A stretch of DNA of 64,000 bases from Candidatus Multivoradales bacterium (GTDB lineage Bacteria; Acidobacteriota; Thermoanaerobaculia; Multivoradales; J023): contig CBDFLE010000006.1 of NCBI GenBank assembly GCA_965248925.1, forward strand, positions 2,816,001-2,880,000, in the 5' to 3' direction. Of this stretch, positions 1,431 to 11,296 are shown one piece after another. Below the pieces are notes generated by a model. It was not told the DNA's origin. It ran no database searches and worked only from the letters and a program-made list of their open reading frames with translations. Both the position numbers and the translations under genes were made by a program. Every line of letters begins with the position of its first letter. Within the stretch, counting starts at the first letter, position 1.

Positions 1431-3316
1431 TGCAACTCCAACAGCAGATAGCCGCCGTCTGGGGACTTGTAGGTTGGCCGCACGCGGCTCGGGTCCCGCA
1501 CCAAGTCGAGCAGCTCTTGAGGGTAAGGGATGCCCCAATTCGCCTTGCGCAGCAGCAGGTGGGTGATGCCCTCGGCGGCCAAGTGCTGGTTGAGGGCCTT
1601 GGGGCCGTCTATATCCTGAAGCCAATCAACCAACTGCGAGGCTTCGAAGAAGCTATCGGCGATGTAGTCGCGCTCACAGAAGAAGGCTCGGTTGTAATCG
1701 ATCATCAACAGGCGGCTTTGCTCCGGCAGCTCATCGATGTGCAGCCACACCGGATCGATGACCGAGGCCAGCACTCGCTCGCCCTCTTCGCGCAGCAGGA
1801 TCTTGCTGGTCTGCCAGCCGCCGCGCAGCACTTTTTGTTGATCGACCACCGCCAGCAACGCCACCGAGCAGCCCAGCAACGCCCAGCCGGCTTGGCGCAT
1901 CCTGGCGTTGCGCAGCTTGCCCAGCAAATCGGCCAGTGCCAGCCCGGCGGCCAAGGCGGCCAGGGGCAGCAGGGGAACCAACAGCCGACTCTGCTGCGAA
2001 GTCAAACTCCAGAAGACAAAGCACAGGGCGACGACAAACAGTGCCCGGCGCACTGCTGGCAGTCGCCAGCCGGCGATCAAAGTCGCGGGCAGCAGTACCA
2101 GCCAGAAGGCACCTAGCCGGCCGTCGAAGTGCTCGTAACCCTGGCCGCCATTGAGCAAGACCCGAGGAATCAGCAGCAAATAATCGAGGGGCTCGCGGCC
2201 CATACCGATCGAGCTCTGCCAAGCGGCCAGTTGCTCCGCCAGCCGGGCGCTCCAACCGCTGCCGCCGAGAACCCCATAGAGCGCCGGGTACACTGGATTG
2301 CCGGTCCACCAAGCTGATTTCACCAACCACGGTGCCCACAGCACCGCCACCGGCAGGGCAAAGCGGGTGGCAAAGTCGCGGCGCAGCTCGGCACGGTGAT
2401 GTTCGGCACGGTGATGCCCGGTACCGCGCAGCAGACGCGGCAGGTAGAGCAGTGCCAGTATCGCCACGCCAACAATGCCGGTGAGCTTGGTCCCCGCCAC
2501 CATGCCGCCACAGAGGCCCGCCAGCAACAGCCAGCGTTGCCGCTCGCGGCGCTGCTCACTATCGAGCGCCTGACAGAGAAAGAGAAACGCACCGAGTAAG
2601 AAAAACGCGTGAGCCAGTTCGACATAGGCCGTCCGTAGCTCAAACATGACGACATCATTGGCGAGGAAGAACAGCGCCGCCAGCCAACCGACCCGACCGC
2701 CGCCGAGCCGCCGGCAGCCCACCACCAGGGCGTAAAGCACCGCCACTCCAAAGCCGAAGTGCAGCAGCTTGGCTAGCACATGGTCCTTGATTCCCAAGGC
2801 CAGGGCATAGAGCAGCTCGGTGTTCTGTGGCCAATGCGAATAGACATTCCACGGTAGCTCGACAAAGCCTCCATGGCGCAAGTAGATCTTCGGCAGAGTC
2901 AGATGGTAGACGCTGGCATCCCAAGAGACCGCCGGCCCCAGGGTGACCATCAAGACGGGAAGCAGATAGAGCCCCAGCAAGAGAGCCAGCACCAGCTCCC
3001 CACGGCCATAGCCCAAAGCCCCTGCGGAGTCGCTGCCGGGAGCAAGTCGTTGGCGCCAGATGGCTGCCAGGAGTAGCAAGCCCAGCATCGCCCCGGTCAG
3101 GCTCCAGGTACACAGCCAGCCCACCGCCGCCAGAGCGAAGAGCAGAGCCACCCAACAGACCAATCCCAGGCAGAGTTCGGCCAAGCCACGGTAGGCGCCC
3201 AATTCGCCGAGGCTGTAGCGAGTGCTGTTCAGGCCGCTCGCCAGCAGCCGGCCGGCGAGCCAGAAGCTCAGACCCAGGGCCAGAGCCAGCAAGCAATGCT
3301 CGAGGATGTAAAGCAT
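1427..3316 (-). CDS. GT-C superfamily membrane glycosyltransferase (629 aa)
   Basis: Many TM helices, SWDASVYHLTLPKIY first-loop motif, KLTG and GNPVYP motifs, soluble C-terminal domain. Confidence 0.75.
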   Translation of the reverse strand: MLYILEHCLLALALGLSFWLAGRLLASGLNSTRYSLGELGAYRGLAELCLGLVCWVALLFALAAVGWLCTWSLTGAMLGLLLLAAIWRQRLAPGSDSAGALGYGRGELVLALLLGLYLLPVLMVTLGPAVSWDASVYHLTLPKIYLRHGGFVELPWNVYSHWPQNTELLYALALGIKDHVLAKLLHFGFGVAVLYALVVGCRRLGGGRVGWLAALFFLANDVVMFELRTAYVELAHAFFLLGAFLFLCQALDSEQRRERQRWLLLAGLCGGMVAGTKLTGIVGVAILALLYLPRLLRGTGHHRAEHHRAELRRDFATRFALPVAVLWAPWLVKSAWWTGNPVYPALYGVLGGSGWSARLAEQLAAWQSSIGMGREPLDYLLLIPRVLLNGGQGYEHFDGRLGAFWLVLLPATLIAGWRLPAVRRALFVVALCFVFWSLTSQQSRLLVPLLPLAALAAGLALADLLGKLRNARMRQAGWALLGCSVALLAVVDQQKVLRGGWQTSKILLREEGERVLASVIDPVWLHIDELPEQSRLLMIDYNRAFFCERDYIADSFFEASQLVDWLQDIDGPKALNQHLAAEGITHLLLRKANWGIPYPQELLDLVRDPSRVRPTYKSPDGGYLLLELH

Positions 3317-6636: not shown

Positions 6637-7170
6637 ATGAAGAATACGTCATTTTTTGTACTGCTGATTGCCTTAGCTGGGTGGGGCGTCAGCACCTTGG
6701 CTCAGGATCAGGAGATGCCCTTGGGCAAGACTTCGCTTGAGCTTCCCACAACCCTGGCGATCGAGTCCGAGGAAGTATCGAAGCTCCGGGTGGTCAGAGG
6801 CCGAGAAATCGCATTCGTGCAGAGGGACGATGGAGACTATGTGCTCAACAAAATGCTGCCCTACGGTGCGATTGTCGACGATCCGAAAACAAAGCGACCG
6901 CGCAACGGTCTAATTGTGGAGTATCAGATCTATGCCCAAGACGATCAAGCATTCTTCGTTGAGATAATTGTTCCGAGAATGCAACACAAAGGTCTAGCGG
7001 ATAGCGAATTCGAAGCGAGTCTCTCAGGTAACGCACTAGTTGATGACTTGGTCTCGGCTTTGGCACTCCAAGTAAGATCTGGTACGCACAGCTGCGCTAA
7101 CGGTCGGGTTTGTGTCAAGACCCGTAAAGTCGACGGGGTTGAAAAGTGTTGCCGATACAAATGTCGATGA
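6637..7170 (+). CDS. Secreted hypothetical protein with Cys-rich C-terminal tail
   Basis: AGGAGG RBS, signal peptide MKNTSFFVLLIALAGWGVSTLA, ends HSCANGRVCVKTRKVDGVEKCCRYKCR; 10 bp after previous gene. Confidence 0.75.
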   Translation: MKNTSFFVLLIALAGWGVSTLAQDQEMPLGKTSLELPTTLAIESEEVSKLRVVRGREIAFVQRDDGDYVLNKMLPYGAIVDDPKTKRPRNGLIVEYQIYAQDDQAFFVEIIVPRMQHKGLADSEFEASLSGNALVDDLVSALALQVRSGTHSCANGRVCVKTRKVDGVEKCCRYKCR

Positions 7171-7248
7171 ACGAGAGGGGTGCGGCTGATCATCTGTTGG
7201 AGCAGCCGACGGCAGACCTGGTGCCGCCGGCCTGACTGCCCGGACCAA

Positions 7249-7267
7249 GTGCCAGCCGATTCTCGGC
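7249..7267 (+). repeat. Island repeat copy R1 (5'-shortened)
   Basis: GTGCCAGCCGATTCTCGGC; degenerate GGTGCCGCCGG also at 7220-7230. Confidence 0.75.
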
Positions 7268-7364
7268 CATTGCGGCGAGTAGACCTGAAGCCGTCAGTGC
7301 AAACCCACGAAGCTTGCCGAGGGCGATCTATCCGCCCAAATGTCTCTGAAGAAGACGGCGGCAG

Positions 7365-7390
7365 GGAATAGGTACCAGCCGATTCGCAGC
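7365..7390 (+). repeat. Island repeat copy R2
   Basis: GGAATAGGTACCAGCCGATTCGCAGC, 11 bp beyond the antitoxin stop codon. Confidence 0.85.
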
Positions 7391-7401
7391 CACCTTGGTG
7401 G

Positions 7402-7791
7402 TCATTGGCCTGTAGCCGCGGAAACCGCCGCGGCAAGATCGGGTGAACGAGATCTACCGCGCCCACTTGCCGCCGTTCTCAGCGGATTACGAGGAACTTG
7501 CGCTGCCTTGCCCGGTGCCTCCGACGGAGTCAGTTGTATGCGAAGTTCTGCTCCGAGCGCCTTCGCCAGCCGGACCATGGTCATCAGGGTGAAGTTGGCG
7601 TTACCGCGCAGGATCTTGGTGATGTAGGCGGGGGAAGTACCAAGTCGGCGAGCCAACTCCGACCTCGACACCTCTTCCCGTTCCATCAGGCGGAAGATCT
7701 CCTCGGTGAATTCCTGCACGGTGCCGGCGAGCCAATAGTCGTCGTGTCCTTCGGCTCTTTTGTAGAGATCGTCGAAGTTCTTGGCTTTCAT
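7402..7791 (-). CDS. XRE-family HTH antitoxin (HigA-like)
   Basis: SRSELARRLGTSPAYITKILRGNANFTL helix-turn-helix; directly downstream of RelE-like toxin. Confidence 0.85.
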   Translation of the reverse strand: MKAKNFDDLYKRAEGHDDYWLAGTVQEFTEEIFRLMEREEVSRSELARRLGTSPAYITKILRGNANFTLMTMVRLAKALGAELRIQLTPSEAPGKAAQVPRNPLRTAASGRGRSRSPDLAAAVSAATGQ

Positions 7792-7796
7792 CGTCT

Positions 7797-8189
7797 CTAT
7801 CCTTTCATTTTGAGAGCGGCTTGCCCTTTTGCCAAGAAGTACTGGCGTCGGTACTCTTGCGCTCTTTCGATCTCGGTTGCCGGGGTCTTCTGGCGCTTTT
7901 TTACGAAGCCGTGACTACAAATCACCAGCTTGCCCTCGTCGTAGAACCAGAGTACCCGGACTCGGCCCTGGATGAACTCCCAGAGCCCAGGCCCGAGCTG
8001 ATGGGAGATCTCCGTATTGCGTGGCGGGCCGTGGTCAGCGACCCGATCAAGAAGCTTGAGCATCCGACGACCGTCTCTTGCGAGCCCGCCTTCAATTTCT
8101 GCCAGAAACTGCAGAAGCGGGCAGTCACCGCGATCGGTGCAGACCGCCAAGACTTGCCAACCTCCACTTCGGACCCGCCGTAACCTCAT
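7797..8189 (-). CDS. Type II toxin, RelE/HigB (Gp49-like) family
   Basis: ATG 8189 with GGAGG RBS; GLWEFIQGRVRVLWFY...HGFVKKRQKTPATEIERA signature; toxin-first order. Confidence 0.88.
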   Translation of the reverse strand: MRLRRVRSGGWQVLAVCTDRGDCPLLQFLAEIEGGLARDGRRMLKLLDRVADHGPPRNTEISHQLGPGLWEFIQGRVRVLWFYDEGKLVICSHGFVKKRQKTPATEIERAQEYRRQYFLAKGQAALKMKG

Positions 8190-8208
8190 TTTAACCTCCA
8201 GGTTCAAA
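8189..8208. promoter_or_regulatory. Imperfect palindrome over toxin RBS/start, candidate TA autoregulatory operator
   Basis: TTTTAACCT-CC-AGGTTCAAA, 9-bp arms with one mismatch. Confidence 0.5.
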
Positions 8209-8341
8209 CGGTGGCAAGCAGGATCTTGCTCATTGTCGATCCTGACCGCCCACGAGGGGTTCGCAACGTGCTGCGGCCCAGCCTCCTCAGCTGAGCCAGC
8301 CAAGCCGATATCGCGTATCCTAGAAGGTCTGGAGGTACTGT

Positions 8342-8371
8342 ATGGCGACGACAATCCAATACTACCCTGAG
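8342..8371 (+). pseudogene. 10-codon stub resembling a DUF2283-type antitoxin N-terminus, cut by repeat R3
   Basis: GGAGG RBS then ATG: MATTIQYYPE, similar to the IxY(Y/D)PE(T)D start of DUF2283 proteins; runs straight into the repeat. Confidence 0.4.
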
Positions 8372-8409
8372 ATAGGTGCCAGCCGATTCGCAGCTGCCGA
8401 TTCGCAGCT
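8369..8409 (+). repeat. Island repeat copy R3 with internal 14-bp tandem duplication
   Basis: GAGATAGGTGCCA GCCGATTCGCAGCT GCCGATTCGCAGCT. Confidence 0.88.
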
Positions 8410-8592
8410 ACTCGGACCTCCGGCCCCTTCGGCCAGGACCCTCTGCCTCCTCTGCACTCTATCCAGCGACCCGTCGCCGATCGTCGAGCTAGCAGAGAGC
8501 TTGTGCGAGAGTGATCGCGTGCGCACAGCCAGCATTGTCGAGAGCGTGGTAGATTGTCCCTCTCCAGGTAATATGCCCGGAGGACGATTCTC

Positions 8593-8874
8593 GTGAGTGG
8601 AGCGAGTACACCGAGCATTGAGTATCCGCCCGAGGTTCTTTGGGCTCTTCAGCAGGCCCCCGAAAAGTTTGCCGCCGAGGCTCGCCTGCTCCTTGCCCTC
8701 AAGCTCTATGAGATGGGCAAGCTGACCACCGGCATGGCGGCTCGGCTTGCTGGGATCCCACGCCTTCGCTTCATCTTCTTGGTGGGCGAACATGGCCTCT
8801 CCCCCTTCGGCGAGGCGCCCGAAGATCTCGAACAAGATCTCGCCGATGCCCGAAGGGCCTGTCGTTGCGAATAA
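8593..8874 (+). CDS. UPF0175 family antitoxin
   Basis: GGAGG RBS; EARLLLALKLYEMGKLTTGMAARLAGIPRLRFIFLVGEHGLSPF...EDLEQDL. Confidence 0.85.
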   Translation: MSGASTPSIEYPPEVLWALQQAPEKFAAEARLLLALKLYEMGKLTTGMAARLAGIPRLRFIFLVGEHGLSPFGEAPEDLEQDLADARRACRCE

Positions 8875-8948
8875 CACGCCCCTCGCGGCTCTCTGGGCGA
8901 TCGACCGTCTGGATCTACTGGAGTCTTTGTTCAGCGAGATCCTGATCC
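8846..8948 (+). pseudogene. Truncated PIN-domain (DUF3368-like) toxin
   Basis: MPEGPVVANNTPLAALWAIDRLDLLESLFSEILI matches the N-terminus of DUF3368-type PIN proteins that pair with UPF0175; similarity ends at repeat R4 where P..V..E is expected. Confidence 0.8.
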
Positions 8949-8973
8949 GAGATAGGTGCCAGCCGATTCTCGG
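8949..8973 (+). repeat. Island repeat copy R4
   Basis: GAGATAGGTGCCAGCCGATTCTCGG. Confidence 0.88.
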
Positions 8974-9110
8974 GAGCTTGGTTGAGGTTGTCGGCGGCAA
9001 AAGCCCTAAACGCAGCAGGGGCAGCCCGGCCTGGCCGGCAACTGCCCCGTCTTTCTTCTGCAAAGAAGGAGTGCGGCCCTCGCTAGAGCCGCACCGGGTC
9101 TGAGCGGGTC

Positions 9111-9947
9111 CTACTGACGCTTACCGCACACTGGATTGATGCAGTGGTCGTGGGGGGCGGTGCCGAAGGAGCTGTGGCAGCTCGTCAGAGCGGCGTTGGC
9201 AGTCCAGCAGTCGACGTCTTCAGTGTCGCAGGAGCGGCCTGGGAAGAAATTGGTCGTACCCGGCAGGACCAAGTCGGGGCGGCCATCGCAGTTGGTGTCC
9301 ACCTTGAACGGACTACTCACTTCGAGATCGCCAGGCCCTGCATTGGTGCAGAAACCCATGCCGTCGATGGCCAGGGTCACCGGGTGGGAAACCGGACCGC
9401 GAACTTCGCCAGTCGCAATATTGGTGAAGTTCAGGCATACATTGACCGACAGGTTGCCAGAGAACTTGCCGCAGTTCTCACACCCCAAATCGGCCTTGAT
9501 CTTGGTGGCATCTTGGCACTCACACAGACAGGCACTGACCCGCCAGCTGGTATCACCGGTTGCCGGGCAAAAGACGTTGATGACGTCGTTGCTGAACAGA
9601 TTGAGGGCGCGGATAACGATTGCAGAAGTTACATCGCCGGAGGCGAAGTCGATCGGATCGAGGCGTTCGACCACGGTATCCGCGTTGCCGAGGATGCCCG
9701 GAGGATCGGTCACCAAGGGCGCGCCCTGAAATGTCACCGAACCGGTGAAAGGGGGAGAGCCGGCGCAGAAGAAGCCGGCTGGAATGGGAACGGCGGAAAA
9801 ATCGGCCACGCTCGGCACGGTGCTCGAAGTCTGGAATGCGTCGATGCCGGGGACGATGTACGGGGGTTGGGCGATAGCCGGAGCGCAGAGCAAGGCCACC
9901 ACAGTCAGGCTAAAGCAAAGCCTAATCCAAGAATTTCTCATGAGCAT
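9111..9947 (-). CDS. Secreted Cys-rich hypothetical protein
   Basis: AGGAGG RBS, signal peptide ending APAIA, 15 Cys in the mature chain (CLCEC, CENC). Confidence 0.8.
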   Translation of the reverse strand: MLMRNSWIRLCFSLTVVALLCAPAIAQPPYIVPGIDAFQTSSTVPSVADFSAVPIPAGFFCAGSPPFTGSVTFQGAPLVTDPPGILGNADTVVERLDPIDFASGDVTSAIVIRALNLFSNDVINVFCPATGDTSWRVSACLCECQDATKIKADLGCENCGKFSGNLSVNVCLNFTNIATGEVRGPVSHPVTLAIDGMGFCTNAGPGDLEVSSPFKVDTNCDGRPDLVLPGTTNFFPGRSCDTEDVDCWTANAALTSCHSSFGTAPHDHCINPVCGKRQ

Positions 9948-10213
9948 ATCCTCCTAAATTTGTCGAAAAACAAAAGCATCCGCGAAGCTAGGCCTCGGGT
10001 CAGACGGATGCCGGTTCAGCAATCTGACCAGCGCGCATTGTAGAGATCTTTAGTGAACACCCACTTCTTTGAACTTGCGGAATGCAGAGCGTTATCATCT
10101 CAACTAATTGCCTGGAACCGGGCTGCTGGGGCTCGCCGCAGAGAGCCTCTGATCCCCCCTAGGAGGTGGCTGCCGAGGCTTTGTTAGAGACTAGGCGCGG
10201 ATTAGGTGCCGCC

Positions 10214-10240
10214 GGAATAGGTGCCAGCTGACTCGCGGCT
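10214..10240 (+). repeat. Island repeat copy R5 (diverged)
   Basis: GGAATAGGTGCCAGCTGACTCGCGGCT, preceded by partial TAGGTGCCGCCG at 10203. Confidence 0.75.
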
Positions 10241-10330
10241 ACCCTGGGAAGGGCAGCAGAAGCGGGGCGGTATAGTGTCGCCAGCTCGATTCCCAACCCG
10301 CTACCTGCAAGCGACCCGAGATCCTCGTTG

Positions 10331-11296
10331 ATGAACCAAGAGCCCCTCCCCCCGTCCTCGCCGGAGCTAACCCTCGTCACCCCGGCTTACGATGAAGAGC
10401 GCAATCTGCCGCTGCTCTACGAGCGCCTGTGCGTGGCGCTCGACGGCGTCGATTGGGAGTGGGTGGTGGTGGACGATCATTCCACCGATCGAACTTTCGC
10501 GGTGGTGCAATCACTGGCGGCGGCGGATCCGCGGGTGCGGGGAATTCGCCTGTCGCGCAATTGTGGTTCGCACAGCTCGGTTCAGTGTGGAATCGAGCAC
10601 GCCCGCGGGGCGGGTGTGGTGGTCATGGCCTCGGATCTACAGGATCCGCCGGAGTCGATTCCGCAGCTGCTGGTCGAATGGCGGGCGGGGGCGCAGGTGG
10701 TGTGGGCGGTGCGCGAGGAACGCCAGGGCGAATCGCTGGCCACCCGCGGTTCATCGCGGGTCTACCATTGGATGATGCGCCATGTGGTTGGGATGAAGGA
10801 GCTGCCGTCAACCGGCGCTGACTTCTTTCTGATCGACCGGCTAGTGGTCGATGCCTTAGCGAGATTCCAGGAGCGCAATGGCAGCATCTTCACCCTGATC
10901 ACCTGGCTTGGTTTCCGTCAGACCTCTATCTTCTACAGCAAGGCGGCGCGGGCTCACGGCAGCTCGAAGTGGACGCTCGAGAAGAAAGTCAAACTGGCGT
11001 TGGACTCGGTGTTGTCGTTCAGTTACCTGCCGATCCGGCTAATCTCCTACCTCGGCATCACGGTGGCCTTTTTCGGCTTGCTCTACGCCAGCGCGGTGAT
11101 TTACAACGCCCTGACCGGCGCCCCGGCCGATGGTTGGTCGTCGTTGATGGTGGTGGTGCTGGTACTCGGTGGCATGCAGATGACGATGATGGGAGTGCTC
11201 GGCGAGTATCTCTGGCGGGCGCTCGACGAGGCCCGCCGCCGCCCTCTCTACACTGTTGAAGCCACTACCCTTCTTCAGCGAGGGGGAGGTAGTTGA
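10331..11296 (+). CDS. GT2 polyprenyl-phosphate glycosyltransferase (GtrB/ArnC-like)
   Basis: PAYDEE, VDDHSTD, LSRNCG, SDLQDPP motifs and two C-terminal TM helices. Confidence 0.9.
   Translation: MNQEPLPPSSPELTLVTPAYDEERNLPLLYERLCVALDGVDWEWVVVDDHSTDRTFAVVQSLAAADPRVRGIRLSRNCGSHSSVQCGIEHARGAGVVVMASDLQDPPESIPQLLVEWRAGAQVVWAVREERQGESLATRGSSRVYHWMMRHVVGMKELPSTGADFFLIDRLVVDALARFQERNGSIFTLITWLGFRQTSIFYSKAARAHGSSKWTLEKKVKLALDSVLSFSYLPIRLISYLGITVAFFGLLYASAVIYNALTGAPADGWSSLMVVVLVLGGMQMTMMGVLGEYLWRALDEARRRPLYTVEATTLLQRGGGS

Follow-up and report, generated by a model that had tools for sequence, protein, structure and literature searches.

In the genome of a Candidatus Multivoradales bacterium, two toxin–antitoxin operons are truncated at copies of a repeat that also makes up the ends of a Y1/HUH transposase family; counted from a fixed point in the repeat, GGTGC^C, the breaks lie 17 and 11 bases upstream. 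In the 64,000-nt stretch of contig CBDFLE010000006.1 analysed here (the window), five copies of the repeat (R1–R5), all on the forward strand, are found between positions 7240 and 10238, and three toxin–antitoxin loci are interleaved with them within 3 kb (Table 1). It is observed where the operons break and at what offsets, that their downstream parts are lost, that the repeat sits at transposase gene ends, that joints across the genome have an 11–17-nt band in common, and that the 3′ side of the repeat behaves alike. With moderate confidence, we favour a mechanism in which both operons were broken by a nick at the fixed point, an extension of 11–17 bases and rejoining of the extended end to DNA cut within the gene.

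Table 1 Features of the repeat array and interleaved genes, in window coordinates
Feature	Position	Strand	Description
R1, repeat copy	7240..7266	+	Fixed point GTGC^C after 7252; 3′ arm in common with R4
R2, repeat copy	7363..7389	+	Fixed point after 7375
XRE-type HTH antitoxin, intact	7402..7791	-	129 aa; homologues 94–141 aa
Gp49-like (DUF891) toxin	7797..8189	-	Pairing with the HTH gene kept in relatives
Operon A remnant	8304..8362	+	Upstream region, RBS (8331–8335) and first 7 UPF0175 codons (8342–8362)
R3, 5′ arm	8363..8379	+	Gene break to GGTGC^C, 17 nt (or 14, should TAC be a local doubling); source of the apparent YPE codons
R3, 3′ part	8380..8409	+	Exact 14-nt tandem duplication (8382–8395, 8396–8409), starting 2 nt past the fixed point
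Operon B UPF0175 antitoxin, intact	8593..8874	+	93 aa, the length of the closest homologues
Operon B DUF3368 PIN toxin stub	8846..8948	+	First 34 codons and one base
R4	8949..8973	+	11-nt 5′ arm (8949–8959), fixed point after 8959, then 3′ arm
278-aa ORF between R4 and R5	9111..9947	-	No Pfam match; relatives in own and other genomes
R5	10195..10238	+	Fixed point after 10224; 5′ arm duplicated (15 nt, decayed)

The second gene of operon B had been read in the initial annotation as a DUF3368 PIN toxin cut at the repeat, and comparison with relatives, which extend to ~162 residues, bears this out. Of 87 loci examined, 57 were alignable, with proline at residue 35 in 50 of them, and 33 of the 50 homologues with a stop codon in range are 161–168 aa long. 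The stub is 68–79% identical to the starts of four full-length toxins. Identity to the 20 closest homologues falls from 0.9 at position 8948 to 0.0 at 8949, and a 327-nt DNA alignment likewise stops at 8948. Foreign DNA begins at 8949 with GAGATAGG, where the initial annotation had placed it, 11 nt 5′ of GGTGC^C in R4. The CC at 8947–8948 may belong to the gene and the repeat alike, since R4 can be folded as a weak hairpin spanning 8947–8973. The frame reads through the repeat to a stop at 9103, giving 85 aa without a Pfam match. Because the conserved acidic residues that lie further along in the homologues are missing, the truncated toxin is probably inactive. The upstream antitoxin (PF03683, E 5.3e-19) overlaps the toxin gene, which identifies the pair as a UPF0175–DUF3368 operon. 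A search of the genome for the missing remainder of the toxin gene gave nothing of matching identity. An insertion that had moved it elsewhere was rejected, as the other genomic DUF3368 copies match the full-length homologues at 31–52%, against 68–79% for the stub; a partly matched PIN gene at C6:924.5–924.8 kb (40–52%) is probably too distant to be this remainder.

The second break lies in R3. The stub that runs into it, an RBS-led MATTIQYYPE, had been assigned to DUF2283; it is a real gene start, with a different identity and a different break position. Two relatives match positions 8304–8362 at 84–88% over 58 nt, non-coding upstream DNA included, and read on into a UPF0175 antitoxin and then a DUF3368 toxin; in the intact homologue L023, the matches to PF03683 (E 5.7e-25) and PF11848 (E 1.2e-12) define the same type of operon. 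None of the 23 homologous starts shown has Tyr-Pro-Glu at this position, and DUF2283 (PF10049) has no match in the genome, so that this assignment was discarded. Judged by these homologues, the stub is the predicted promoter, the RBS and the first seven codons of a second UPF0175–DUF3368 operon, and its YPE is supplied by the repeat rather than derived from the gene. Homology ends at 8362, which is 17 nt 5′ of GGTGC^C; should the second TAC have arisen by local duplication, the end moves to 8365 and the distance shrinks to 14 nt. The break falls 3–6 nt short of GAGATAGG. The sequence CCCTGA in the R3 gap also occurs in repeat copies at C4:253162 and C5:710342. The closest homologues of both stubs are only 73–88% identical, and the true ancestral alleles are not among them. 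The initial annotation had placed both cuts at the 5′ edge of the repeat. The truncations are real, and the edge is not fixed: the two joints, 3–6 nt apart relative to the repeat, fall 11–17 nt before GGTGC^C.

Chance does not account for the repeat: its 15-nt core has nine exact copies in the genome, against 0.09 expected under a sixth-order Markov model; a 16-nt core has 16 exact copies, with none of its reverse. The genome contains 11 matches to Y1_Tnp (PF01797), and a search with a family alignment returned 18 matches here and members in 48 of 61 related genomes searched. Most transposase gene ends in this genome carry inward-pointing variants of the motif, and exact copies point inward, at most about 300 nt from the gene, in six other genomes (on both gene sides in G005 and G039, and on a single side in four more). 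An exception is found at C6:4208580, where three exact copies face away from the transposase gene. Among 84 motif loci from relatives, nine contain the transposase gene, three of these being the same gene. The repeat is the end repeat of this family, and R3 and R4 are stray copies; the window holds no family transposase gene, and the nearest lies ~62 kb from R3. Across the 61 genomes the association is weak, the exact motif being present in 15 of 48 with the family and in 2 of 13 without it.

The transposases comprise ~313 residues, with H62, H64 and Y123 invariant in 41 sequences and a catalytic tyrosine motif of consensus YLLSHG. The predicted structure (pLDDT 91) has as its best fold match the E. 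coli TnpA-REP protein (4er8, E 8.3e-6). A strong hairpin or co-varying arms were considered for the repeat and found unsupported: folding is no better than for shuffled sequences, and arm complementarity is weak (z 1.9, best of six registers). A GC-rich hairpin with a short conserved tail, itself also dispersed, follows several copies (C6:4208340–4208380, C6:2609000–2609030, C5:710260–710340 and C4:253175–253240).

The offsets of the two window joints recur across the genome. Tandem duplications ending exactly at GGT[AG]C^C number 54, some of them copies of one event, and 52 are 11–17 nt long; their rate is 4.84 per 1000 sites, against 0–1.38 in nine control contexts. Paralogue breakpoints picked without regard to the motif lie 11–17 nt before it in 11 of 1491 cases, against 0.37 expected, after de-replication, which was applied because multi-copy insertion sequences swamped the raw count. 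At 382 motif sites, which include chance matches, 15 of 24 joints on the 5′ side fall in the band (one of the 15 being an arm duplication relative to a sister copy), compared with 3 of 36 joints at 3000 control sites. Host DNA ends in C at 14 of these 15 banded joints, and both window joints share the band and the C. In duplications, by comparison, the first copy follows a C in only 14 of the 32 cases that are informative, which fits a sequence-specific host end and a variable arm end. For at least 5 of the 16 genomic events considered, 1–2 nt of microhomology can explain the junction C in place of base specificity; the arms of 130 copies are C-rich at the junction positions.

A motif was flagged beyond the far end of only 6 of 32 copied segments, so one-ended events dominate in the genome. 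This agrees with the initial annotation, which had proposed one-ended joining of DNA next to the repeat without regard to gene boundaries, and the latter part was borne out as well. Two further rearrangements were observed. A 2845-nt segment at C5:1440544–1443388, 96% identical to C5:702410–705254, carries arm-plus-motif joints at both ends in direct orientation, like the window units, and a 1.03-kb tandem duplication at C5:2057006–2059070 runs from 12 nt ahead of the fixed point to a similar pentamer.

Strict polarity towards the left end of the repeat, as first proposed, proved to be a bias and not a rule: the tally of junctions at other genomic copies confirmed the band on the 5′ side and also revealed joints on the 3′ side, with 15 and 8 in-band joints, respectively, at the 382 sites. 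On the 3′ side, a band 12–18 nt past the fixed point takes in 8 of 22 joints (4 of 19 at control sites), and 3′ duplications of the R3 type, 15 and 17 nt long and with the same start base, are found in two other genomes. The left-sided appearance of the window arises because the recognisable genes happen to sit left of the repeats. No usable homologue was found for the 3′ flanks 8410–8592 (among 201 genomes) and 8974–9110, and the 33 open frames scanned, out of 40 listed on the 3′ sides of R1–R5, have no Pfam match above noise that would identify a cut gene.

Copies of the motif also lie inside genes. Of 117 exact copies from 16 other genomes, 116 were examined, and in 27 a protein of the genome studied here aligns across the motif, in distant alignments (35–65% identity, one 30%); 8 of the 27 have no gap within 30 nt, and others show in-frame gains of 5–16 residues. 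Coding-like flanks stay open across the motif for at least 60 codons in 69 of 86 cases, a count to be read against the greater ease of open frames by chance in high-GC DNA. Pfam domains resume past the motif, as in 3HCDH_N (1–54, then 70–179) and CHAT (2–90, then 100–289). No close orthologue of two in-gene copies was found in 10 genomes each, and no clean two-ended patch was found relative to a close paralogue in the genome studied here, all 19 spanning cases being background matches. Exact cores lie in conserved genes at L226, L227, L210, L198, L229, L223, L240 and L190 (genomes G310, G002, G027, G026 and G024), in several frames and on both strands, several of them gapless relative to homologues. 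In G002, variable tandem runs of the repeat itself, with a ~21-nt period, sit in frame at one loop of NRPS condensation domains (L251, L254–L258). Copies within long open frames of the genome studied here are found at C6:372999, C5:904859, C6:3660812, C6:1695871 and C6:1711673–1711706, one of them with a 33-nt duplication.

Operon B has kept its antitoxin, and operon A has lost both genes. Both operons are antitoxin-first and oriented towards the repeat, so the toxin is lost first. The orphan antitoxin, which had been proposed as a survivable outcome, is indeed present in operon B; the survival argument carries little weight, as homologous toxins are also short elsewhere (17 of 50). The orphan is a consequence of gene order and is common in the UPF0175–DUF3368 family. 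UPF0175 (COG2886) and DUF3368 (COG2405) form predicted toxin–antitoxin pairs, described as potential toxins by Matelska et al. (2017, PMC5499597), and both cut operons belong to these pairs, whose toxicity and neutralisation are predictions in that account and here. In relatives, UPF0175–DUF3368 loci (L019 in G010, L031 in G005, L119 in G011, L040, L043 and L116) are often broken or replaced by pairs labelled HicAB-like from their translations, and the repeat lies near two of them.

The third locus, a Gp49–HTH pair beside the array, appears intact, and a sigma-70-like site (10/12 match, positions 8188–8217, reverse strand) lies immediately 5′ of its toxin gene. The 278-aa protein encoded at 9111–9947 on the reverse strand is Cys-rich and probably secreted; it has paralogues in the genome, and a query spanning 8940–10340 has relatives in 41 of 201 genomes. 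Around the array, between window positions 1427 and 19059, is a glycan-type gene cluster with aminotransferase, epimerase, glycosyltransferase and acetyltransferase-like ORFs, named from their translations. Most likely, the toxin–antitoxin genes belong to an accessory region and are bystanders there.

In the favoured mechanism, the transposase, as the presumed enzyme, would nick what is presumably the lower strand at G^GCAC, opposite GGTGC^C. On the simplest reading, a lower-strand G would hold the enzyme, at G^GCAC as well as at looser sites further away. A host polymerase would extend the free 3′ end by 11–17 nt from the nick, and this extension would set the length of the arm. Rejoining of the extended end at the same nick would give an arm micro-duplication, and rejoining at a distant nick would give a deletion or a copied segment. 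In HUH chemistry as described for TnpA-REP, the enzyme keeps the 5′ end from its own cut and any 3′-OH may attack (PMC3333891). The same source describes low-specificity C^T cleavage that can take place at a distance, cutting inside the complement of the guide tetranucleotide, the transfer of strands and a nick–extend–rejoin amplification model, and the mechanism proposed here is close to that BIME model.

Single one-ended events are insufficient to explain the in-gene copies, because most coding flanks stay open across the motif and overwriting codons needs two joints. It is possible, and we suggest it tentatively, that the unclassified YLLSHG Y1 clade is a two-armed DNA editor, in which 11–17-nt arms of the clade's own end repeat would be fused to host cytosines from either side to yield micro-duplications, gene-cutting deletions, copied segments and, where the arms land close together, length-neutral overwriting of codons in functional genes; the window array would then be a stack of enzyme-made arm joints. 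A related proposal, which we regard as unlikely, is that the repeat itself moves as a two-armed patch of ~25–35 nt that replaces host DNA of any length, so that R3 and R4 were written in at the deletion, short patches sparing genes and long ones truncating them. Divergence between repeat copies sets in 11–17 nt left and 13–15 nt right of the fixed point, both sides show an excess of joints, and the 27 alignable in-gene copies, 8 of them gapless, and the domains that carry on across the motif all suit such a patch. A motif-like site also lies 7 nt past the R3 break in two operon A homologues, at 9/11 and 10/11 (null 1.8% and 0.2%; 7/11 in a third homologue), and may have drawn the enzyme to the gene, this being one case spotted after the fact. 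However, no such site marks the targets of the 32 other genomic events (best 8/11), the motif is at one end only in most copied segments, the complementarity between the arms is weak, and the searches against close paralogues and orthologues yielded no clean patch.

Quite unlikely, too, is an account in which the enzyme or a stalled fork only nicks and host repair switches template through 1–3 nt of microhomology, with no strand transfer by the transposase. The CC that suits both the toxin gene and the R4 hairpin and the TAC doubled at R3 would fit this, as would the junction C that is also present in sibling copies in at least 5 of 16 events and the many joint partners within 1–12 kb. Yet R3, the only full sibling of the R4 arm, has T and not C before the arm, and the narrow band, with duplications ending exactly at GGTGC^C, requires resealing at the nick. 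That the array is a programmed, integron-like cassette system capturing or silencing toxin–antitoxin modules is very improbable. Five same-strand copies among three such loci, and similar repeats near toxin–antitoxin clusters in two relatives, recall a cassette array, in which whole genes lie between sites; here genes are cut internally at 2 of 5 copies, at variable offsets, and insertion sequences and transposase genes are cut by these joints as well. Moreover, only ~3 credible motif copies (8 matches) occur in 293 kb of homologous loci, and short toxins are common without the repeat. Still harder to credit are assembly errors at the repeat. The genome apparently comes from a mixed sample and the evidence consists of contigs, not raw reads; against this, R3 and R4 have only 21 identical nt in common, and the offsets fit the genome-wide pattern. 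For the spanning check raised with the initial annotation, single contigs of 37–67 kb from four of four separately assembled runs, all of one sample that is probably the source of the genome and not an independent one, cover 7100–10400 with no other letters, gaps or joints. Mis-assembly of both joints is unlikely. A scan of GTDB contigs returned distant relatives only.

Transposases of the Y1 type flanked by terminal inverted repeats (TIRs) were described over ten years ago as TIRtrons (TIRYT; Di Nocera et al. 2013, PMC3733652), and the present family resembles them in combining a RAYT-like Y1 HUH gene with inverted terminal repeats, one outward-facing case excepted, that are also dispersed singly or in clusters. 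The consensus GGGGWSAS, given there for most but not all TIRs, differs from the motif here, which begins GGTGCCAG and was not found in the text supplements of that study. No description of a cut site, arm, duplication or gene break was found there. More broadly, we found no published account of the cut site or joint products of TIR-flanked Y1 transposases in the texts, as distinct from the figures and non-text supplements of PMC3733652 and PMC6006769, which could list the repeat.

With TnpA-REP and the REP–BIME system of E. coli (Ton-Hoang et al. 2012, PMC3333891), the family shares the HUH-Y1 fold and, at the level of models, nick–extend–rejoin amplification; low-specificity cuts both close to the bound repeat and far away, and on either side, are described there together with strand transfer, and match the enzyme activity inferred here. 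Unlike in that system, the gene is multi-copy and encodes ~313 aa, the repeat does not form a stable hairpin, GGTGC^C takes the place of C^T, and joints that cut genes at 11–17 nt are among the products. Within the TnpA-Y1 classes of Quentin et al. (2018, PMC6006769), the HUH-Y core is shared, and GGTG(C) is the 5′ foot of acidobacterial and planctomycete TnpA-REP REPs in Table S1; in-frame repeat insertions within genes are also known there, for subclass 2.4. The GGTGC REPs listed have long stems, in contrast to the repeat here. The motif YLLSHG matches neither Y---NP (class 2, Table 1 of PMC6006769) nor Y---Q, and no C-terminal match to Bac_DnaA_C, HTH_23 or HTH_28 was found by Pfam at E up to 1 in either of two proteins, which sets the family apart from subclass 2.1. 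Scores against the RAYT model of NCBIfam (NF047646) are 32 and 45 bits, below its cut-off of 80. Compared with the RAYT/REPtron hairpin and its GTAG/GTGG-type foot, the repeat here has a GGTGC foot, like the listed acidobacterial REPs, and folds no better than shuffles.

One-ended transposition of IS91/ISCR and adjacent deletion by insertion sequences (PMC11708052) likewise join a fixed element end to variable host positions without target duplication. In the present case, unlike in IS91/ISCR, the joint is variable, 11–17 nt outside the fixed point, and occurs on both sides without strict polarity to one end or the need for an adjacent transposase gene. IS91 is itself a Y2 enzyme with a four-base target. 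DNA uptake sequences (PMC2817400) are similar as short motifs placed in coding DNA in several frames, but these number hundreds to thousands, whereas the repeat here has tens of copies and is tied to transposase ends. The toxin–antitoxin setting is ordinary, and the value of the window lies in its cleanly mapped joints and the corrected gene call. The joints predict a lower-strand nick at G^GCAC, arms of 11–17 nt, a host end at C and activity on both sides of the repeat; if true, the process would be one way in which a widespread group of bacteria loses genes, copies segments and replaces codons. Although they fail the sequence tests for subclass 2.1 and RAYT, the transposase and its repeat behave like TIRtron and TnpA-REP.
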